IMG/VR virus record: IMGVR_UViG_2585428088_000002
Span: 64,395 to 103,450 of that record
Length of the DNA: 39,056 bases
Source of the DNA: a virus
Reading direction: 5' to 3' (one strand)
The notes under the pieces are model-generated. The model was not told the origin of the DNA and ran no database searches. It saw nothing but the letters and a program-made list of their open reading frames with translations. Made by a program: the position numbers and the translations under genes. Numbering within the stretch: the first letter of the stretch is position 1; the number at the start of each line of letters is the position of its first letter. This document shows positions 3,684-30,315 of the stretch, piece by piece.

Positions 3684-5013
3684 TTATCAGAAATACGCAA
3701 CCAAATTTACGCTGGAACATCCTGTCTGCTGCTTAATGCTGGATATGGGATTAGGCAAAAGTGTTATTGCCTTGACGGCACTGTGGATAATGGCTCTGGA
3801 CAGCTTTGACATCGGGAAGATACTTGTTATCGCTCCCAAGCGCGTAGCTGAAAACACCTGGCCGAAGGAATTGGCGAAGTGGGAGCATCTGACCGGGCTA
3901 TCTTATTCCCTGGTTCTGGGCAGCAAGAAACAGCGTGAAGAGGCTCTTGCCCAAAAAGCGTCGGTGTATATCATAAACAGGGAAAATGTGGCGTGGCTTG
4001 TGGAGAATCATCGCTGGGATTTTGACACGGTGGTGATTGACGAGCTGTCAAGCTTCAAGTCCAATCAGGCACAGCGGTTCAAGGCGTTAAAGAAAGTCCG
4101 ACCCTTTGTGCAGCGGGTGATCGGCCTTACTGGCACTCCGGCGCCCAATTCTCTCCTAGACCTTTGGCCGCAGATGTTTCTTCTGGATATGGGGCAAAGG
4201 CTCGGACGCTTCATCGGCGGCTATCGGGACCGGTTTTTCGTTCCTGACAAACGCAATCGTGAAATTATTTACTCTTATAAGCCCCGCGAAGACTCGGAGG
4301 GAAAAATCTATGAACTGATTTCAGACATATGCATTTCCATGAAAGCCGTTGACTTCCTCGCTATGCCGGAGAAAATCAGCAATTGCGTTGAGGTTGAACT
4401 GGATCAGAAGGAGCGGCGGATTTACGACGATTTCCAAAGAAAAATGTGTATATCTCTCGGCAATGAGGAGGAGCTGGACGCCATGAACGCGGCAGGCCTT
4501 TCGAACGAACTGCTGCAGATGGCAAACGGCGCGGTTTACGGCGAGGACAAAAAAGTCATTTATATTCATGACAGAAAGCTGGACGCGCTTGAGGATTTGA
4601 TTGAAGCCGCCAACGGCAAGCCCCTTCTTGTGGCTTACTGGTACAAGCACGATCTGGCTCGCATTTGCGAGCGGTTTGACATCAGAACAATTGATACGGA
4701 AAAAGACATTGATGACTGGAATGCTGGAAAGATTCCCGTTGCCCTCATCCATCCGGCGTCGGCGGGACATGGACTGAACTTGCAGGAGGGCGGCTCCACT
4801 GTAGTGTGGTTTGGACTTACCTGGTCATTGGAATTATACCAGCAGCTGAACGCAAGACTCTGGCGGCAAGGTCAGAAAAATACGGTGGTGATTCAGCACA
4901 TCGTCACCCGCGGCACACACGATGAAGATGTCATGAAAGCTTTGGAGACGAAGGATACGCGGCAGTCGGCTCTGATTGCGGCAGTCAAGGCCAGGATAGG
5001 AGGTGCGGCATGA
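3664..5013 (+). CDS. SNF2-family phage helicase
   Basis: LDMGLGKS, VIDELS, GLTGTP, SAGHGLNLQ, QLNARLWRQGQ. Confidence 0.92.
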   Translation: MKYRPHDYQKYATKFTLEHPVCCLMLDMGLGKSVIALTALWIMALDSFDIGKILVIAPKRVAENTWPKELAKWEHLTGLSYSLVLGSKKQREEALAQKASVYIINRENVAWLVENHRWDFDTVVIDELSSFKSNQAQRFKALKKVRPFVQRVIGLTGTPAPNSLLDLWPQMFLLDMGQRLGRFIGGYRDRFFVPDKRNREIIYSYKPREDSEGKIYELISDICISMKAVDFLAMPEKISNCVEVELDQKERRIYDDFQRKMCISLGNEEELDAMNAAGLSNELLQMANGAVYGEDKKVIYIHDRKLDALEDLIEAANGKPLLVAYWYKHDLARICERFDIRTIDTEKDIDDWNAGKIPVALIHPASAGHGLNLQEGGSTVVWFGLTWSLELYQQLNARLWRQGQKNTVVIQHIVTRGTHDEDVMKALETKDTRQSALIAAVKARIGGAA

Positions 5014-20659: not shown

Positions 20660-23560
20660 ATGGCCGGGAACGCTTCGATGACGATTTTTATCGGCGGGGA
20701 CAACAGCGACTTTTTAAAAAAATGGGAGAGTACCAAGCGCGCACTCCGCAAAGGGCTTGGCTCGGAAGCGATGGCAGCGTCGGAGAGCATTGCGACCGGC
20801 CTAGCCGCCGCGACCGCAGCTCTCGCCGCTTTCGGGGTTGCCAGCATCAAACTGGCAGGCGACATGGATGCCAGCCGCAAAGCCTTGACTACGCTGTTGG
20901 GCGATGCTAAGGCCGCGGAAAAAATGCTCGCCGATTTGGCAACCTTTGCGGCGGATACTCCTTTTGAACTGCCGGGGCTTTTAACTGCATCGAAAAAACT
21001 ATTGGCCTTCGGCTTTGCGTCGCAAGACATCATTCCGATGCTGGCAGCAATCGGCGACGCGGCGGCCATGCTGGGCATCGGCGAGGAAGGCATTAGCCGT
21101 TTGACCAACGCTATTGGGCAGATGCAAGCCAAAGGGAAAGTGTCCGCCGAAGAGATGATGCAGCTAGCCGAAGCCGGAGTGCCGGCGTGGAAGTTCCTGG
21201 CGGACGCCATTGGAAAAGATATTCCCACAGCCATGAAAATGGCAGAGCAAGGGGCGATTGACAGCACTACCGGAATCAACGCGCTTTTAATGGGCATGCA
21301 GTCCAAATTCCAGGGCGGCATGGAAGCCATGAGCAAGACCATCCCCGGACTCATGTCGACTATCAAGGATAATGTGAGCATGGTCATGGTGGAAATCGGC
21401 GACAGCATCGCGAAAAACCTAAACCTAGTGGAAAAGCTGCAAGGTGTTGCCGACTGGCTGTCGCAATTTGCCGCGGCGGTGAAGGCGCTCGGGTTGAAAG
21501 AAGCGTTGCAAGGCATGATTCCGCCGGAAGTAATCGCTTCGGTGTTCGTCCTTTCCGGAGCACTTTTAGGCGCGGCGGTTCCGGCAATGGTGGCGCTTGG
21601 AATCGCGACTTGGACGGCGCTCGCACCGCTTCTGTCTTTCATCGCGATTGGCGCGGCGGTTGGCTTGCTGGCCTACGAGATTTGGGTCAACTGGGAGCCG
21701 CTGTCCGAGCTTTTCAGCACTTTGTGGAGTACGGTTACGGACATTTTTACTGATGCTTGGAACGCGATTACCAATGTCGTAGACAATGCTGTGACCACAG
21801 TGACTACAGCTATTTCTGACGCTTGGAATGCCATCGTAAGTTTCACGGTTGGCATCTGGAACAGCATTGTAACGACCTTATCCGAAGCGTGGAATTGGAT
21901 CACCGTTCTTGTTGAAGATGCTCTGAGTTCGGTGGCCCAGTTTATTGGCGATGGCTGGAACGCAGCGGGCGAAGCCACCTCCAGTGTATGGAATGGCATT
22001 GTGGATTTCATCGACGGCGCTTGGGCCAGCATTAAAGAGTTGGTTGCACAGGGAATCAACTGGATTGTAGACAAACTCAGTCCGTTGAAAAGCTTTTTTG
22101 CCCAGTTTATTCCCGATTCGGTGGGGAATTGGTTTAACAAGGTCACTGAAGGAATCGGCAAAATAGGCGCGGTGGCGGGAAAGTTCAGCTTTGGCTTTAG
22201 CCGCAAGGATATATCCGCTCTACTCCCTCAGATGACGAAGCCTAACACCAAGTTCACAGGCCTAACTAATGCTACCCCAGCAACCGCTTCTCCAACTACA
22301 GGCGGAGGAGCTGATAAAGAATACGAAAAACTCCAGAAAAAAGCGGAGCAAGCGAGTAAGGCAATTGAAAAAGAATGGCTGCAGCTTACCGCTACCCAGA
22401 TGGACGCCCTCGAAGCATGGTATGCCGATGAACTGGACACCTTGAACGAATCTAAGGATGCCAATGAAAACTATGAGAGGGATGTCCTGTGTCTTAATGA
22501 GATTTACACCGCGAAAAAGAAAAAGATTCTGCTCGATGAGCAAAAAGAAAACAACCGGATTGCCGATCAGGCGAGTGACCTAGCCCGGAGTCTTTCCGAT
22601 AAGCTAGGCGGGCTTGGCTTGACTGGCGTCGATAAGCAGAAGTTTGACATCGCAACCGATGCGACGCGGCAAATAGATGAAGTGCGGAAAAAATACAGAG
22701 ATCTTGCCCTGGAGTATTCCGCCAGCACAGCCGATCAGCAGGACCAGTTCCGCAAAGCGTGGGAAACCAATGGAATCCAGTTTTCTATCACAGAAATCGG
22801 CATGGTAGATTTTTGCCGCCAGGCGGCTGCCGAACAGGTCGCCATTGAAGCTGAGAAAAGCAAAAAAATTAAAGATCTGCACTATGACCGCGTCAAGTTT
22901 CAGGAGGAACTGGACCGGGCGCGCGCGGATGGAGACGTAGCCAAATTCCAGCAGCTTCTAACTACCGAGCAGGCGATGTTCGCACAAGACTTGGCAGGAA
23001 AACAGCAATACATTGACACGTATTATGAAGTTTGGAAGGGGTCTCATAAATCCTCCATGGAAATTATGGCTCAGCAAATGGCCGGTACTTATGACGGCCT
23101 GAAAGGCTTTTTCTCAGACATTCTTACTGGTACAAAGTCCATAGGCGAAGCCTGGCAAGCCCTAGGCAAAAGCATAATGAAAATCATTGCAGATATGGCG
23201 GCACAGTGGCTGGCTAGCCAAATTACCATGTCTTTGTTTCCCGCACTGGCGCCTGCAAAATCGCGAGGCGGGATATCCGGAATTCCCGGACAATATGCTG
23301 CCGGCGGTAACTACTCCGGTGGTCTTGCTTTAGTAGGGGAAAAGGGGCCAGAATTGATTAACTTTAATCGCGGTGGATATGTGTTTACTGCGGCTGAAAC
23401 AAAGAAAATGTTAAGTCAAAGCGCCGATTCAAGAACGAGCCGACCTATGGTCATTACTATGAACATCACGACACCGGATGCGGCCAGTTTCCGCCGCAGT
23501 CAGTCGCAAATTTTGGCAGAAGCAAATGCTGCTTTGGCTATGGGAAGGAGAAATCTCTAA
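20660..23560 (+). CDS. Tape measure protein
   Basis: 966 aa; tape-measure domain FAADTPFE...GQMQAKGK; Trp-periodic repeats; C-terminal VGEKGPEL and DAASFRRSQSQI. Confidence 0.93.
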   Translation: MAGNASMTIFIGGDNSDFLKKWESTKRALRKGLGSEAMAASESIATGLAAATAALAAFGVASIKLAGDMDASRKALTTLLGDAKAAEKMLADLATFAADTPFELPGLLTASKKLLAFGFASQDIIPMLAAIGDAAAMLGIGEEGISRLTNAIGQMQAKGKVSAEEMMQLAEAGVPAWKFLADAIGKDIPTAMKMAEQGAIDSTTGINALLMGMQSKFQGGMEAMSKTIPGLMSTIKDNVSMVMVEIGDSIAKNLNLVEKLQGVADWLSQFAAAVKALGLKEALQGMIPPEVIASVFVLSGALLGAAVPAMVALGIATWTALAPLLSFIAIGAAVGLLAYEIWVNWEPLSELFSTLWSTVTDIFTDAWNAITNVVDNAVTTVTTAISDAWNAIVSFTVGIWNSIVTTLSEAWNWITVLVEDALSSVAQFIGDGWNAAGEATSSVWNGIVDFIDGAWASIKELVAQGINWIVDKLSPLKSFFAQFIPDSVGNWFNKVTEGIGKIGAVAGKFSFGFSRKDISALLPQMTKPNTKFTGLTNATPATASPTTGGGADKEYEKLQKKAEQASKAIEKEWLQLTATQMDALEAWYADELDTLNESKDANENYERDVLCLNEIYTAKKKKILLDEQKENNRIADQASDLARSLSDKLGGLGLTGVDKQKFDIATDATRQIDEVRKKYRDLALEYSASTADQQDQFRKAWETNGIQFSITEIGMVDFCRQAAAEQVAIEAEKSKKIKDLHYDRVKFQEELDRARADGDVAKFQQLLTTEQAMFAQDLAGKQQYIDTYYEVWKGSHKSSMEIMAQQMAGTYDGLKGFFSDILTGTKSIGEAWQALGKSIMKIIADMAAQWLASQITMSLFPALAPAKSRGGISGIPGQYAAGGNYSGGLALVGEKGPELINFNRGGYVFTAAETKKMLSQSADSRTSRPMVITMNITTPDAASFRRSQSQILAEANAALAMGRRNL

Positions 23561-23561
23561 C

Positions 23562-24167
23562 ATGCAAGCTTTTCACGAAGTGCAGTTCCCGCCGGATATT
23601 TCTTATGGAGTAACTGGGGGGCCGGAGTATTCTACCGATGTTGTTATTACTGGTTCGGGCTATGAGCAGCGTAATATCAATTGGTCTCAGGCAAGGTGTA
23701 AGTACCAAGCCGCTCATGGTGTGAAAAATGAAGATCAAATGAGACGGTTACTGGCCTTCTTTCGGGCTCGACGAGGCAAGGCATATGGTTTTCGTTTCAA
23801 AGATTGGCTCGACTTTAGGGGAAAAGGAGAATATATCGGTACAGGCGATGGCAAAAAGACAACATTTCAACTGAGTAAAACCTATATAGACGATGGTGGA
23901 TATACCGATGTACGTAAAATCAGAAAACCAGTCGTTGAAACAGTGAAAGTGTATCTTGCTGGTATTGAGCAGCAAGCCAATTGGTCGGTAAATTTCACTA
24001 ATGGCGTCATTACTTTTGTCTCGGCACCGGCTCAAGATGCTGTTATTACTGCTGATTTCGAGTTTGACGTGCCCGTTCGATTTGATACCGACCATTGTCC
24101 TCAGTCTATCAAAGACTGGAATATTTACGGCTGGGATAATATCCCCCTCATAGAAATACGTGTTTAG
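23562..24167 (+). CDS. DUF2460 (GTA-like distal tail protein)
   Basis: FHEVQFP.DISYG..GGPEYSTDVV...G.EQRN..WS; FFRARRGKAYGFRFKDW.D; FEFDVPVRFDTD. Confidence 0.92.
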   Translation: MQAFHEVQFPPDISYGVTGGPEYSTDVVITGSGYEQRNINWSQARCKYQAAHGVKNEDQMRRLLAFFRARRGKAYGFRFKDWLDFRGKGEYIGTGDGKKTTFQLSKTYIDDGGYTDVRKIRKPVVETVKVYLAGIEQQANWSVNFTNGVITFVSAPAQDAVITADFEFDVPVRFDTDHCPQSIKDWNIYGWDNIPLIEIRV

Positions 24168-24545: not shown

Positions 24546-24944
24546 TTGGGATTGAAATTTTATATTAATGGAACCGTTGGTGCCAAAGATGGTACATTAG
24601 TGTCTAGTGGCAGTATGACGTCTCCTATTGTCTTTGACGGCATGTATCCGGGAGCAAGCGGATCACAAGTCTCAAAAACTATTTTTATTCGCGCCGACGA
24701 CGGTGAGACTTGGCGTGATGTCAACGTGCAGTTTAAGGGAAGCACTTCTGCCCGTTTCGAATATTCTTCTCCCTCATCCGGCTTTGTTACTAATTATGAC
24801 ACGAACACACCACAAGTCATACTATTTCTTCCTAAGGTTACTTCAAATAATATTTCGTTCGTGGTAACCGCTAAATCTCTTTCCAGTGAATCTACATCAC
24901 CCGACACTTCCGTATCTTTAGTCGCTTGGGGGTGGCAAAGCTAA
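24546..24944 (+). CDS. Tail-tip associated beta-rich protein, paralog 2
   Basis: AGGGGTG RBS and TTG start; FYINGTVGAKDGTLV. Confidence 0.7.
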   Translation: MGLKFYINGTVGAKDGTLVSSGSMTSPIVFDGMYPGASGSQVSKTIFIRADDGETWRDVNVQFKGSTSARFEYSSPSSGFVTNYDTNTPQVILFLPKVTSNNISFVVTAKSLSSESTSPDTSVSLVAWGWQS

Positions 24945-25372
24945 TGGCGCATTTACGCTTGTATAAAAGGGGAACTCCGGGACTAACAGATGGTATTGAG
25001 CTGATACCGGGGACAGATATGATTGATGCGAGTGGCCTTTATCCTAGAATACCGTCAGGACATGTAAGTGCAGCGGTTATGTCCTTATGCTTACGATGTG
25101 ATCCTGGCTTCAAAGCAACGAGTGTGACTATTTCAGCTGTTTCTCCAGGCATATCAGGTGTATATGGTAATGTTTACGGGCCAATTACTACGGTAGCTCA
25201 GTGGGAAAGCCTTTCGAGCATGAGTAATATTGTAAACTGGGGTTGCAGTATTTCGACTGTGTTAAATGTTAATATCATGTTTTTGCTTGCAGTCTATGCC
25301 TATTCTGGATACCCTGCCATAAATCAAGCTGGGAATCTCTTAAATATCTCCTTTACCGAGGCCGCGCTATAA
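24944..25372 (+). CDS. Tail-tip associated beta-rich protein, paralog 3
   Basis: TAATG coupling with the upstream gene; LYKRGTPGLTDGIEL. Confidence 0.7.
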   Translation: MAHLRLYKRGTPGLTDGIELIPGTDMIDASGLYPRIPSGHVSAAVMSLCLRCDPGFKATSVTISAVSPGISGVYGNVYGPITTVAQWESLSSMSNIVNWGCSISTVLNVNIMFLLAVYAYSGYPAINQAGNLLNISFTEAAL

Positions 25373-26644
25373 ATGGCTACTACCCTAATCTGGCAGGCCC
25401 AGTTTAAAACGTATGGGAATAACACTACTGAGTATTTGGCGGATACTAAACGCATTTGGACTCCGGGAGGATTGACTTGGCAAGCTCAGTATCGAACAAA
25501 CGCAAACAATCAGACTGAATTCATAGCCGATATGCAGAGAAACTGGATTCCAGGCGGATTGATATGGCAAGCGCAGTATAGAACGTATGGTAATAACCAA
25601 ACGGAGTATTCAGCGGATATCCAGAGAATCTGGGTCCCGGGTGGATTAACGTGGCAAGCTCAGTTTAAGACGTATGGTAATAGTAACAGTGAAAGTATTG
25701 GCGACATATTCCGCATTGTAGGCGTTACGCTTATTTATCGTACCGATATTGCTCCGCTAATTCGAAGAGTGAATCAGCCTCCTGGAGTACCTTGGTTACA
25801 AGAAGAAGTAACAACAGCGGCATGGTGCTGGAAGCTTTCGCTTAGGGACGGGACGGTATTTGGGTTTACCAATCATGATGAAGATATCACCTTAGGCGGT
25901 GTAACGTACGAAGCATCCACCGGCTTTGTCCCAACTGCTGTGGAAACCTCAAATAACATGGCAGTAGATAATCTGGAAGTCGAGGGCTTTTTAGACAGTA
26001 GCCGAATTCAGGCGGAGGATATTGCTACAGGGCGATTCGATTTTGCTAAAGTTGAAGTCTTTTTGTGCAACTGGAGGAATACCAAAGATCCTTTATTAGT
26101 TGTCCGTAAAGGAACAACAGGACAAATAAAAACCGGCAAGTACGGATTCCAGGCAGAAGTTCGGGGATTGCTTGAGGCCTATCAACAATCAGCAGGTACA
26201 GTGTATCAGAAAAGCTGCCGGGCAAAGCTTGGCGATTTTCAATGTAAAATTGAGCTTAGCCTATTAACTACATTTGGACAGGTAATGCAGGTAAACCAGA
26301 ATGGAACAATTCAGACTAATCTTTCTCAGTCTAAGGGTTATTTCGACTACGGAGTAATGACTTTTAATACGGGTGGCAATAGCGGGTGTCAGTATGAAGT
26401 AAAGACCTTTGAAGATGGATTACTAACGCTTTTCCTGCCAGCCACTTTTAGCGTAGCGATAGGGGATACCTTTTCTATAACGCCCGGATGTGATGGTAAC
26501 TTTTCAACTTGTCGGAAAAAGTTTAATAATGGGATGAATTTCAGAGGAGAGCCGCATATACCGGGCAATGATTATCAATCGGCATATCCGGGACAAGGCT
26601 CCAGTAATACCGTTTCAGAAGGCAGTAATCTTAGACGTGGATAG
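25373..26644 (+). CDS. DUF2163/BR0599 GTA-like hub protein with an N-terminal repeat extension
   Basis: CWKL...DG.VFGFT.HD, NMAVDNLEV, CRAKLGD.QC, GCDG...TC..KF.N..NFRGEPHIPG. Confidence 0.9.
   Translation: MATTLIWQAQFKTYGNNTTEYLADTKRIWTPGGLTWQAQYRTNANNQTEFIADMQRNWIPGGLIWQAQYRTYGNNQTEYSADIQRIWVPGGLTWQAQFKTYGNSNSESIGDIFRIVGVTLIYRTDIAPLIRRVNQPPGVPWLQEEVTTAAWCWKLSLRDGTVFGFTNHDEDITLGGVTYEASTGFVPTAVETSNNMAVDNLEVEGFLDSSRIQAEDIATGRFDFAKVEVFLCNWRNTKDPLLVVRKGTTGQIKTGKYGFQAEVRGLLEAYQQSAGTVYQKSCRAKLGDFQCKIELSLLTTFGQVMQVNQNGTIQTNLSQSKGYFDYGVMTFNTGGNSGCQYEVKTFEDGLLTLFLPATFSVAIGDTFSITPGCDGNFSTCRKKFNNGMNFRGEPHIPGNDYQSAYPGQGSSNTVSEGSNLRRG
25385..25723 (+). repeat. About 3.9 tandem 87-bp (29-aa) intragenic repeats
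   Basis: L(I/T)WQAQ(F/Y)(K/R)T..N..E...D..R.W.PGG units starting at 25385, 25472, 25559 and 25646. Confidence 0.95.
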
Positions 26645-26657
26645 GAGGGAATCGGCA

Positions 26658-27089
26658 GTGACGCGTGGAGAAATAGTAGAGGAGGCTCGTTCCTGGATTG
26701 GTACAAGGTGGGTTCATCAGGCCTGCCTAAAGAATGTAGCCGCGGATTGTGTTGGATTAATACGAGGGGTTTATGAACGCATTACCGGTCAAGCGGTGAA
26801 GGTAGTAATTGATTATCCGGCTACCTGGCATTTATTTAAGGCGGAGGAACGCTTATACAATGAAGTAAAAAATTATCTAGCAGAAATTCCTGTAGAAGAA
26901 GCGCGTCCTGGTGATGTGCTTCTTTTTGGTTTTGGAAAAGGTCCAGCGCATCATGCAGGTATTTTAGCAACATCACATACGTTTATTCATTCATGGGCCG
27001 ACGTAGGAAAAGTATCGGAAACCAGGCTGGATGAGTTTTGGACAAAAAATATCCGGGCCGCTTTTCGGTATCCTGGAGTTCTTGACTAA
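26658..27089 (+). CDS. NlpC/P60 family tail peptidase
   Basis: ARSWIGT...HQ......DCVGLIRGV, PGDVLLF, HAGI, FIHS; AGGAGG RBS and GTG start. Confidence 0.9.
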   Translation: MTRGEIVEEARSWIGTRWVHQACLKNVAADCVGLIRGVYERITGQAVKVVIDYPATWHLFKAEERLYNEVKNYLAEIPVEEARPGDVLLFGFGKGPAHHAGILATSHTFIHSWADVGKVSETRLDEFWTKNIRAAFRYPGVLD

Positions 27090-29326
27090 TGGCTACGCTC
27101 ATTTTAGGAACTATAGCGAAGAACGCTGGCTGGAATGCGTTTTGGTCTGGAGTAGCCGCTATGGCCGGCAGTGTCATTGACCAATCCTTATTTGCTCCTA
27201 ACGTTAGCAGAGAAGGACCGAGATTAGATGACCTCAGACTGCAAACTTCAACGTTCGGTGCTAGCATACCTAAGATTTACGGAACGGTCAGAACAGAGTG
27301 CAATGTAATTTGGGGGACAAATTATGTTGAGCACGTTACAACAGAAAAACAAGGAGGCGGGAAGGGTGGCGGAGGCGGGTCGGTTACCACAACCAGCTAT
27401 TCCTATTCTGTGTCCTTTGCGGTTGGACTCTGTCAGGGGCCGATTAGCGGTATTGGCAGAGTGTGGGCAGACGGTAAGTTAATTGATTTAGCAAAACATG
27501 ACTATACCCTCTACTATGGTACGGAAGCACAGACTCCCGACCCTTATATGGAAGGTATCGAGGGAGTGGGCATGGTTCCGGCATACCGTGGACTAGCCTA
27601 CATCGTATTCAAGAATTTCTTTGTTACAGACTACGGAAATCGGATACCTAACCTGTCCTTTGAGGTGATGCATTCCACTACCGAGCTTAAAAACATTGTA
27701 GAAGAGATTAGCGTTAATGCTGGATTAGATTTATCCGAGATAGACGTATCGAGTATGGCAGATATCCATGTTCCGGGCTACAAAACGAGTGGCGAAAAGT
27801 CTCGCAGAAGCCAAATCGAGCAATTACAGCTGTTATATGTATTTGACGGGGTAGAGAGAAACGGCAAAGTAGTATTTAAGCAGCGGGATTTTACGAAAGT
27901 GTTACCGATCAGCTTAGATTCGATAGGCGCTTATGAAAACTCTCCGTCCTCTGAAGCCTATACTGCTACTCGCATGGATGAGAGAGAACTGCCGGTCCGT
28001 CTTACCATCAAATATTTGTCTGCAGATAAGGAGTATCAGCAAGGGGTGATGTCTGCCTTTCGCCAGTTAACACTGAGCCGAAATGAGAAATCACTAGACA
28101 CCGAATTTGTTTTAACTGATTCGCAGGCGAAAACTCTGGCAGATACTCGTCTCTATGAAGCGTGGGTTGGCAGAACCAAATATGAGTTTTCGCTTGGATC
28201 ACAATATGCTCACATACTTCCCGGTGATATTTTGGAACTGAATCTGGCCAACGAACGTAAGGCTCTAATCGTTGTTAGCAAAGTCTCATATGGCAAGCCA
28301 GGAATCATAAAGATTCAGGCAGAGTCGACTTATGCTAGTACGTATACTCTTGTAACTCGGAACGTCGATCCTGAACCGCAGCTCCAGACGGCAGAACCAG
28401 CAACCGAAATTACTACTGAGTTCTTAGATATACCTCGTTTGCCGGGGGATAACAGCCAGACCGATGATACGATTTACGTTGCTTCAACAGCTAGTGTTTA
28501 TTACGGAGCCAGTGTATTCCGCTCAAACGATGGAGGCCTGACCTATTCCTTAAACCTGTATCGAACACCACAAGCCTATATGGGGGTCACTACGACTGCT
28601 TTAGCAAGTGGACCAACTGTTTATTGGGATAACGCTAATACATTAGATGTAGTTATGAGCTATGGAAGTTTAGAAAGCCGACCAGTTCTGGATGTACTAA
28701 ACGGATTTAATGCCGCGCTAGTGGGCGATGAAATTATTCAGTTTACTACTGCCCTACTGATTGCGCCCAACACCTATCGAATATCGGTTTTGCTAAGAGG
28801 AAGGCTTGGTACTGAACACAAAGCAGCGTCCCATGTGGCGGGCGAGAGATTTGTTTTGTTGTCATTGTCTATGCTCGGCAGGCTCACAGTGCCTTCTTCG
28901 GACTGGTTTCAGAGTCGATTGTTCCGCGTTGGGCCTTCGACACTTCCAATGACAAACCATTTATATCAGGATAAACACTTTACTTCCCAGGGAATTATGG
29001 CTCTTCCTTTATCGCCTTGTCACATAACTGGTTCTAGAGATGACAGTGGAAACCTCACTATTTCCTGGATTCGTCGTACACGTGGAGACGGTAGCTGGAA
29101 GGAACTGGTTGATGTTCCGCTAAGTGAGAAAAGTGAGATGTACGAAATCGATGTGGTAAGTGAAGGAACTGTTAAAAGAACCTTACGGACTGTATCGTCG
29201 TTTGTTATCTATTCAGCAGATGAGCAAATAGCCGATTTTGGTAGTGTGCAAAGTCTGATAAAGGTCCGGATTTATCAGATGAGCGAATCGAGAGGGCGAG
29301 GAACCGTGAGGGAGGAGATAATTTGA
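27089..29326 (+). CDS. Large tail tip/host specificity protein (GTA megatron/gpJ-like)
   Basis: EGPRLDDL..QTS..G..IP..YG..R...NVIW, PAYRGLAYIVF, YGNRIP, LLRGRLGTE, W.RRTR. Confidence 0.88.
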   Translation: MATLILGTIAKNAGWNAFWSGVAAMAGSVIDQSLFAPNVSREGPRLDDLRLQTSTFGASIPKIYGTVRTECNVIWGTNYVEHVTTEKQGGGKGGGGGSVTTTSYSYSVSFAVGLCQGPISGIGRVWADGKLIDLAKHDYTLYYGTEAQTPDPYMEGIEGVGMVPAYRGLAYIVFKNFFVTDYGNRIPNLSFEVMHSTTELKNIVEEISVNAGLDLSEIDVSSMADIHVPGYKTSGEKSRRSQIEQLQLLYVFDGVERNGKVVFKQRDFTKVLPISLDSIGAYENSPSSEAYTATRMDERELPVRLTIKYLSADKEYQQGVMSAFRQLTLSRNEKSLDTEFVLTDSQAKTLADTRLYEAWVGRTKYEFSLGSQYAHILPGDILELNLANERKALIVVSKVSYGKPGIIKIQAESTYASTYTLVTRNVDPEPQLQTAEPATEITTEFLDIPRLPGDNSQTDDTIYVASTASVYYGASVFRSNDGGLTYSLNLYRTPQAYMGVTTTALASGPTVYWDNANTLDVVMSYGSLESRPVLDVLNGFNAALVGDEIIQFTTALLIAPNTYRISVLLRGRLGTEHKAASHVAGERFVLLSLSMLGRLTVPSSDWFQSRLFRVGPSTLPMTNHLYQDKHFTSQGIMALPLSPCHITGSRDDSGNLTISWIRRTRGDGSWKELVDVPLSEKSEMYEIDVVSEGTVKRTLRTVSSFVIYSADEQIADFGSVQSLIKVRIYQMSESRGRGTVREEII

Positions 29327-29868
29327 GCGACAATACACCAAGATTGATATTACCTTATATTGTGCAAAGCCAGGCGCAGAAGGAAGTCACACATGCTATG
29401 GGACTCAACCGCCTAGATGCATTTACTCAAACGGCAGTAGAAACTACCTCACTTACGGCCCCGCCTGTTGGTATAGAGGGGAACCTGTATATTGTAGGAA
29501 TAGGAGCAACTGGAGCTTGGGCTGCGAAAGATAAGCAACTAGCTCAGTTTATTGGTGGGAGTTGGGTTTTCTATACACCTTTTGAAGGTATGAGGGTTTG
29601 GGATAAACAAACAGCGCAACCACTTGTCTATAAAGGTTCAATCTGGCAAAATGAATTTTCAGCCGCAAATAGAATCGGTTTCTTCGGCGCAACACCTATC
29701 GTTAAAGCGATAGTATCTTTCGGGAATATGGATAATGAAATCGGCGGCCTTACTGTCAGTGCATCCTATTCGCAGGTGGAGGTGCAGGCGCTGCGGGATA
29801 AATGCGAGGAACTGGCTGATGATGTGCGAGCGCTAAAAGCGGCGCTGAGCAGCTATGGCTTGGTATAA
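29323..29868 (+). CDS. DUF2793 domain tail fibre-like protein
   Basis: TPRL.LPYI..SQAQKEVTH...L..LD; YIVG.GATGAWA. Confidence 0.88.
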   Translation: MSDNTPRLILPYIVQSQAQKEVTHAMGLNRLDAFTQTAVETTSLTAPPVGIEGNLYIVGIGATGAWAAKDKQLAQFIGGSWVFYTPFEGMRVWDKQTAQPLVYKGSIWQNEFSAANRIGFFGATPIVKAIVSFGNMDNEIGGLTVSASYSQVEVQALRDKCEELADDVRALKAALSSYGLV

Positions 29869-29883
29869 AAAGGAGGATGAGAA

Positions 29884-30315
29884 ATGATTGAGTATACTCA
29901 AATAGAGCTGCGCATCATGGCTTTGTTTTCAGCCATAGGCGCAGCGTTTTCCTTTCTTGTCGGCGGTGTCGACAAGTTGATTACGGCACTTCTTATTTTT
30001 GTTGTGATTGATTATGTGACCGGGTTGATCGCTGCGTGGAAGACGGCAACGCTTGACAGCAAAAAGGGCTTTGAAGGGATAAAACGCAAAATCGTTATGC
30101 TGGTGATCGTTATTATGGCTCACTGGATTGATGCGAGCATCTTTGGCAGCAGCACCTGCCGGTCCATGGTGATCTTTGCGTATCTGGGCAATGAAGGCTT
30201 GAGCATTATTGAAAACTTGGACCGTATGGGGTATAGCGAATATATTCCCGTTTTTATCCGGGAGAAGCTGGTGCAGTTAAGAAGTGAAAAGGAGTCTCTC
30301 CGAAAAGAACCATAG
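29884..30315 (+). CDS. Holin (phage holin 4/TcdE-like)
   Basis: GG.D..I.ALL..V.IDYVTG, S.KGF.GI.RK, NEGLSIIEN; three hydrophobic segments. Confidence 0.92.
   Translation: MIEYTQIELRIMALFSAIGAAFSFLVGGVDKLITALLIFVVIDYVTGLIAAWKTATLDSKKGFEGIKRKIVMLVIVIMAHWIDASIFGSSTCRSMVIFAYLGNEGLSIIENLDRMGYSEYIPVFIREKLVQLRSEKESLRKEP

Follow-up and report, generated by a model that had tools for sequence, protein, structure and literature searches.

The window, by which we mean the whole 39,056-nt stretch of DNA that was analysed, represents a prophage, located on contig C12 of a genome of 4.15 Mb; the genome collection includes a relative of the same genus, Propionispora sp. 2/2-37. The late operon of the prophage encodes a tail tip of the GTA/phiJL001 type, and its genes and domains are summarized in Table 1. 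The baseplate hub contains both PF09931 and PF09356 and, judged by these domains, belongs to the GTA/phiJL001-type hub family. Its residues 142–413 align to residues 11–290 of RcGTA g13 (6tba/6teh; E 5.4e-45), and four cysteines that are invariant in nine hubs (C282, C291, C373 and C380) fall, in the alignment, on the Fe-S ligand cysteines of g13. The first ~127 residues of the hub have no counterpart in g13. Between the Dit gene and the hub gene lie three further genes (1.2 kb), designated pA, pB and pC, so that the adjacency of Dit and hub is broken; this is a variant of synteny that leaves the protein family unchanged. The Dit open reading frame opens at 23478, and orthologs start near 23562 (the G045 ortholog aligns from residue 29). 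The hub gene as called in the genome itself (P0003, 390 aa) starts at TTG 25472 and loses the first repeat described below; the ATG that immediately follows the pC stop, at 25373, is the likelier start because the resulting N-terminus, M.T.L, is conserved in all types.

Table 1. Tail-tip genes of the window, with the repeats and domains of the hub protein.
Feature	Coordinates	Strand	Evidence or remarks
Tape measure protein (TMP)	20660–23560		
Dit, distal tail protein (DUF2460)	~23562–24167	+	PF09343, E 1.8e-73
pA, first small beta-sandwich paralog, 118 aa	24179–24535	+	Alignments; family HMM E 1e-38
pB, second paralog, 132 aa	24546–24944	+	phrog_23562 (unknown function), E 4.7e-6
pC, third paralog, 148 aa from TTG	24926–25372	+	Alignments; TAA stop abuts the hub ATG
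Baseplate hub, 423 aa, repeat extension plus GTA g13-like core	25373–26644	+	PF09931 + PF09356
Repeat 1 (r1), hub residues 5–33	25385–25471	+	Unit HMM E 1e-14
Repeat 2 (r2), hub residues 34–62	25472–25558	+	
Repeat 3 (r3), hub residues 63–91	25559–25645	+	
Repeat 4 (r4), terminal degenerate unit, hub residues 92–120	25646–25732	+	
Linker to core, hub residues 121–140	25733–25792	+	Alignment; conserved QPPG.PW
Hub attachment domain, residues 141–293	25793–26251	+	PF09931, E 3.6e-54
BR0599 C-terminal domain, residues 322–400	26336–26572	+	PF09356, E 3.5e-27
NlpC/P60 tail peptidase (g14-like)	26568–27089	+	PF00877, E 4.2e-8
g15/megatron-like tail tip protein	27089–29326	+	PF13550, PF23666; phrog_4271, E 1e-197
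DUF2793	29323–29868		
Holin	29884–30315		

The N-terminus of the hub consists of three full and one degenerate 29-residue repeats. An earlier note, made from the sequence alone, had described three complete and one near-complete 87-bp repeats, and a direct-repeat finder bears this out, returning four copies at an exact 87-nt spacing (25386, 25473, 25560 and 25647). The start that the note gave, 25385, stands; the end that it gave, 25723, falls short, as the array reaches 25732. At a lag of 29 residues, 52 of 87 positions are identical, compared with 5.5 ± 2.3 (maximum 15) in 20,000 shuffles, and no other lag between 20 and 39 gives more than eight identities. The first three units follow the consensus L.WQAQ[FY][KR]T.(G/A)NN.TE[YF].AD..R.W.PGG. 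The fourth retains the first half and then ends with ..GDIFRIVGVTL, and this D.FRI..VTL junction motif closes r4 at the same position in all sequence types. The note was also right that the array precedes the hub core (PF09931 and PF09356 span residues 141–400), that it immediately follows three paralogous genes, albeit weakly related ones, and that the protein is conserved while synonymous sites have diverged. Within the window, r1–r3 are 59–76% identical in amino acids, with third-position identity of 31–52% and a different synonymous codon at 45–73% of the conserved degenerate codons. Nucleotide identity among the units is only 48–71%, a divergence too great for Tandem Repeats Finder, which at a score of 30 missed the array. 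In comparison with the Propionispora sp. 2/2-37 ortholog, dN/dS is 0.13 in the repeats and 0.11 in the hub core; the array is therefore translated and constrained, under purifying selection. It is real, old and selected, and not an artefact of chance or slippage.

Comparison between sequence types reveals a common skeleton: an alternating first strand, a polar turn and then [YF]..D..R.[WY]..GG. Within each type the first three repeats are homogenized (53–84% identity). Between types, by contrast, units at the same position are no more alike than units at different positions (for example, 0.32 vs 0.33), so that in these alignments r1–r3 show concerted evolution and no positional orthology. The terminal unit behaves differently, the identity of r4 to r4 between types being greater than that of r4 to other units. 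Homogenization of this kind fits equivalent units that pack against one another or bind a common feature, rather than three specialized sockets. AlphaFold2 (AF2) run on the single sequence gives one long hairpin per repeat (E5–14/E19–30, and so on), with a pLDDT of only 50–62 over the repeat region; the model of the entire hub is poor (pLDDT 37.5). On this low-confidence model, the four 29-residue beta-hairpins would form an eight-strand antiparallel meander of ~116 residues.

The three genes upstream encode proteins that are weakly paralogous by alignment. A family HMM matches all three at E 1e-38 to 1e-45, and on this basis they can be placed in the same family of small phage proteins as pB (phrog_23562). 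Invariant columns (Y6, G12, G16, R49 and N102) and an N-terminal motif, Y..GT.G.TDG, are common to all of them. As an open reading frame from TTG 24926, pC overlaps pB by 19 nt; an ATG at 24947 lies 2 nt past the pB stop, is equivalent to the start of the G090 ortholog (M8) and is probably the real start. An AF2 model of pB from a 43-sequence alignment is a complete nine-strand beta-sandwich (pLDDT 86.8, pTM 0.83). Fold searches with this model return only generic Ig-like sandwiches (Z 6–8.5, best 8.5), which include PapD-like/MSP, mu-homology, cohesin and glycosidase accessory domains and pilins, many of them peptide- or strand-binding; for the PapD-like and pilin folds Z is only ~6. Such scores are typical of any beta-sandwich and hence show the fold class but no function. 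pB is also similar to large unnamed viral clusters of the ESM Atlas (score 0.98–0.99); a PDB profile search with the paralogs gave nothing below E 0.27. pA, pB and pC retain one-to-one orthology between types over long distances. Single-copy pB-like genes occur in other tail modules (L062 and L063) whose neighbours lack the 29-residue repeats, and the sandwich family can therefore do without the hairpins.

The repeat domain is very rare, with about seven sequence types found, and matches no Pfam or PHROG family. A full HMMER search with the extension as query, run over 1.84 billion representatives, gave seven matches. Just one of them, a 110-aa fragment (P0006), is truly related; the remaining six are repetitive but unrelated (a YSIRK surface protein, Ig_7 repeats and eukaryote-like low-complexity sequences). 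A word-based protein search with residues 1–130 yielded no more than a single ortholog and the shorter gene call of the genome itself, and look-alikes of the extension in the ESM Atlas (score 0.76) are uninformative. When 185,579 species genomes, IMG/VR and JGI metagenomes were scanned by pattern, the domain turned up in one Propionispora genome, in two Pelosinus MAGs and otherwise in only a handful of uncultured viral contigs. Among GenBank phages there is no match to pB, to the extension or to the single-copy pB-like protein, and no cultured phage has the module. Six types are statistically secure (window/G045, second prophage/G054, G090, L047/L059, L058 and L060), and all six have three full units and one terminal unit of 29–31 residues each.

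One of these types belongs to the second prophage, which lies on the same contig ~26 kb upstream of the window (L003, G000:C12:52000-68000; hub at L003:8398-9687). The architecture of its tail module is the same, and the sequence of its repeats is strongly diverged. The two prophages are 91% identical in TMP and 80% in Dit, but only 31–48% in pA, pB, pC and the extension; by sequence, it is mainly in this cassette that two related prophages of one genome differ. The comparison with G090 gives the same picture at greater resolution. The flanks are well conserved (TMP 93%, Dit 80%, hub core 73%, P60 83%), whereas identity is 42% for pA, 41% for pB, 36% for pC and 22% for the extension. The three genes and the extension thus diverge as one block, the boundary of which lies within the hub gene. 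Over five types, identity of the extension correlates with that of pB (r 0.75) and pC (0.73), but not with that of Dit (0.00), its own core (0.09) or P60 (−0.13); as the ten pairs are non-independent and the loci few and related, these statistics, like those of co-occurrence, overstate independence.

Co-occurrence itself is strict. Every repeat-bearing protein found directly follows a pA-pB-pC triad. Conversely, in about 25 relatives without the extension Dit lies next to the hub and there is no insert: Dit abuts the hub where the hub cores are 47–60% identical (L037, L038, L041, L043, L051 and L052), and 21 further Negativicutes hubs have Dit–hub gaps of −52 to +36 nt. The association also extends beyond the hub. 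In L060 (5848–6765), four repeats (unit HMM ~1e-12 each) are attached to a C-terminal domain that is not that of a hub, with the triad upstream and tail-fibre genes downstream. In L061 (2088–2939), three N-terminal units of ~28 aa (2+1) precede a phrog_120 baseplate-wedge domain, beside Baseplate_J and after a triad. The comparison by hhalign of the extension profile with the L061 repeats is not significant (E 0.03), nor is that with L066, so that this myovirus baseplate-wedge protein is only probably the seventh carrier type, on the basis of layout and short motifs. The triad and repeat domain are portable between baseplate proteins, as L060 and probably also L061 show.

Within the window, the genes are tightly packed (gaps ≤11 nt, with TAA-ATG at the pC/hub junction), with no excess of promoter- or terminator-like sites; this arrangement fits coupled, equimolar synthesis. 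In six of the seven types the repeat protein starts in the frame in which pC stops, with gaps of 0, 18, 12, 12, 0 and 12 nt (window 25370–25375; L003:8377-8400; L035, L047, L060 and L061). Programmed read-through from pC into the hub was considered but is unlikely, and was rejected, since in two of the types the gap contains a further in-frame stop. It should also be noted that L060 contains, between pA and the intact pB-pC (4021–4964), a frameshifted second pB (4021–4203 and 4197–4463) and second pC (4450–4575 and 4872–4964), which represent either a decayed tandem duplication or an assembly error; they are not accompanied by an extra repeat.

Since the repeats are always inherited with the three paralogs, they probably anchor an add-on adhesion module on the baseplate. 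We consider it slightly better than an even bet, from the gene linkage, that the hairpin array keeps pA–pC attached to the baseplate, where they would form an accessory adhesion layer that evolves fast. The hub of RcGTA is a trimer, and its N-terminal attachment domain contacts the Dit hexamer (PMC7296036); the N-terminal extension of the window hub would therefore start at the Dit–hub junction. The array is a distinct N-terminal domain that precedes the Dit-binding attachment domain, and array and triad form one genetic and evolutionary cassette. On the proposed mechanism, the array would be an adaptor that holds pA, pB and pC at the periphery of the Dit–hub junction, where a trimeric hub could display as many as nine small sandwich domains around the tail tip. 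These would be part of the virion and serve in adsorption, as a fast-evolving accessory layer facing the host, with a stoichiometry that would be fixed rather than expandable. Some observations weigh against docking. No longer protein with a pB-like domain was found, and hence no natural fusion of pB with the repeats, although this is a weak negative; nor does any cultured phage offer an example. The fold matches of pB lie within the range of any beta-sandwich, L062 and L063 have pB-like genes without repeats in their neighbours, the hairpin model is of low confidence and the loci are few and related.

A bolder form of the same idea is that the cassette is a self-contained plug-in receptor-binding module, graftable onto unrelated siphovirus- and myovirus-type baseplate proteins, in which each hairpin captures one sandwich by edge-strand augmentation to give a hetero-oligomeric adhesin. 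We regard this as unlikely, though not negligibly so; were it true, it would be a docking principle previously undescribed for phage host-range modules.

The earlier note had itself suggested a docking scaffold for the triad, and as a statement about gene linkage this holds, given the co-occurrence, block divergence and portability. It had gone further and proposed that every repeat provides a strand or a docking site for one particular paralog in the manner of pili, the array being an expandable one-to-one scaffold, and in this respect its proposal is not supported; we judge it distinctly improbable. There is some attraction in finding three full repeats, each terminated by R.W..GG, beside three paralogs in all six established types, in the PapD-like chaperones and pilins among the nearest folds to pB, and in the Y..GT.G.TDG motif that could be a shared docking element of the paralogs. 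An expandable device is nevertheless not what the types present. The 3+1 repeats and three paralogs are constant in the six secure ones, and the extra pB and pC of L060 are decayed and brought no added repeat. The note had proposed a test of whether repeat and paralog numbers co-vary across genomes; as no variation in number was found among the six, co-variation cannot be shown, and the 2+1 repeats of L061 beside three paralogs mean that no single counting rule applies to all types. Nor does strand complementation of one subunit by each repeat agree well with repeats that lack positional likeness between types, when the paralogs are clearly orthologous, or with pB modelled as a complete nine-strand sandwich (pLDDT 87), in which a missing strand is not apparent.

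A further reading, to which we give about the same small weight, is that the repeat domain folds by itself into an eight-strand meander sheet or barrel and serves as a spacer, as a collar in contact with Dit or as a glycan-binding element. In that case the paralogs would attach elsewhere or act separately, and the linkage would reflect a shared host-range function instead of contact. The homogenization of r1–r3 is as expected for units that pack mutually or meet a repetitive ligand, AF2 gives a continuous hairpin meander with no partners present, and other hubs bear unrelated accessory fusions at the N-terminus (the NCTSP TIM barrel of G048 and 1020 aa in G206). However, the triad accompanies the repeats to proteins that have neither a hub core nor a DUF2460 neighbour (L060 and L061), and with triad and repeats together outside the GTA-type tip it is hard to explain them by paralogs that bind another part of that tip. 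The tracking of extension identity with pB and pC also speaks against this reading. Fibre tips and their chaperones are a known case in which a structural segment and adjacent small genes co-diverge, and this pattern, with the PapD-like chaperone fold matches of pB, could suggest that pA–pC are dedicated assembly chaperones of an aggregation-prone hairpin domain, outside the virion like tail-fibre assembly proteins; but this is the least probable of the readings, since it would have three diverged paralogs kept as orthologs over long distances for a client of 116 residues, their genes lie upstream rather than downstream of that client, and single-copy relatives occur among tail structural genes with no hairpin client.

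Other hubs carry varied N-terminal additions, which fits the hub N-terminus being a general display site. In the G048 hub (L042:3809-6550) the core is preceded by NCTSP_N and a non-contractile tail sheath TIM barrel (PF23844/PF23845), and the hub of G206 (L041:3355-7287) has ~1020 extra N-terminal residues with no confident Pfam match. In G180 (L039:2276-3340 and L039:3352-4809, two copies in that genome) the hub has a different 65-residue N-terminal extension with four LYAQAL repeats ~15 aa apart, the periodicity of which is borderline; between Dit and this hub lies one 485-aa gene with no family match, a parallel to the rule of an insert plus a hub extension. With the paralog HMM, no pB-like domain is detected in the large fused hubs of G048 and G206, nor in the 485-aa protein encoded by the insert in G180. 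Two further short arrays, with a comparable core motif, lie in genes next to single-copy pB-like ones: one of Y.ADT.R with a period of 14 (60/126 identities) in L064:547-2718 (~residues 280–470), and a weak one of HGDTERTL with a period of ~15 in L066:5375-7057 (residues 1–110).

The host range of siphophages depends on parts that hang from the tail tip, and the GTA-type tip is usually regarded as an alphaproteobacterial design; in the present case, phages of diderm Firmicutes have elaborated it. As judged from its genes, the cassette is a rare accessory baseplate module with an undescribed adaptor domain, and adaptor and triad together are apparently a compact and undescribed means of equipping a GTA-type tip with further parts. 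Should docking be confirmed, the adaptor would represent a new protein–protein attachment module, both small and portable, and would help to explain how two close Propionispora prophages come to differ (TMP 91%, cassette 31–48%).

The closest known systems are the hubs of RcGTA (g13, Rcc01696; 6TBA/6TEH) and roseophage R4C (8GTC), which share the homologous core (141–413; E 5e-45 and 6e-39, respectively), the four conserved cysteines and the order TMP-Dit(DUF2460)-hub-NlpC/P60-g15-like-DUF2793. RcGTA g13 differs in that it begins at the attachment domain (the alignment starts from its residue 11) and has no N-terminal repeats, and RcGTA has no genes between Dit and hub. The pB-like members of phrog_23562 and of the unnamed viral clusters have no assigned functions, and the single-copy ones occur without the hairpin domain. 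RHS/YD repeats resemble the array in being short hairpins with a Y..D..R-like core, and PF03527 matches the window extension alone (33 bits). That match covers 16 profile positions and the WQAQ type only, the other five extensions giving none and PF05593 none at all; membership of the RHS/YD family was rejected on these grounds. Chaperone–usher pili likewise combine small Ig-like sandwiches with an extended beta segment, but they are not homologous, the pB model gives no sign of an incomplete fold, and its matches are no better than those of generic sandwiches. In TP901-1-type modules, extra receptor-binding or adhesion subunits are borne on a core tail-tip protein through an adaptor segment, and are fast-evolving and exchangeable. 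Such systems, namely BppU/BppL of TP901-1 and the ‘evolved’ Dit and Tal extensions of Gram-positive siphophages, may be analogues in their manner of working. They have no sequence or detected fold relation to the window cassette, in which the adaptor would instead be an array of hairpin repeats on the N-terminus of the hub and the additions three paralogous sandwiches.
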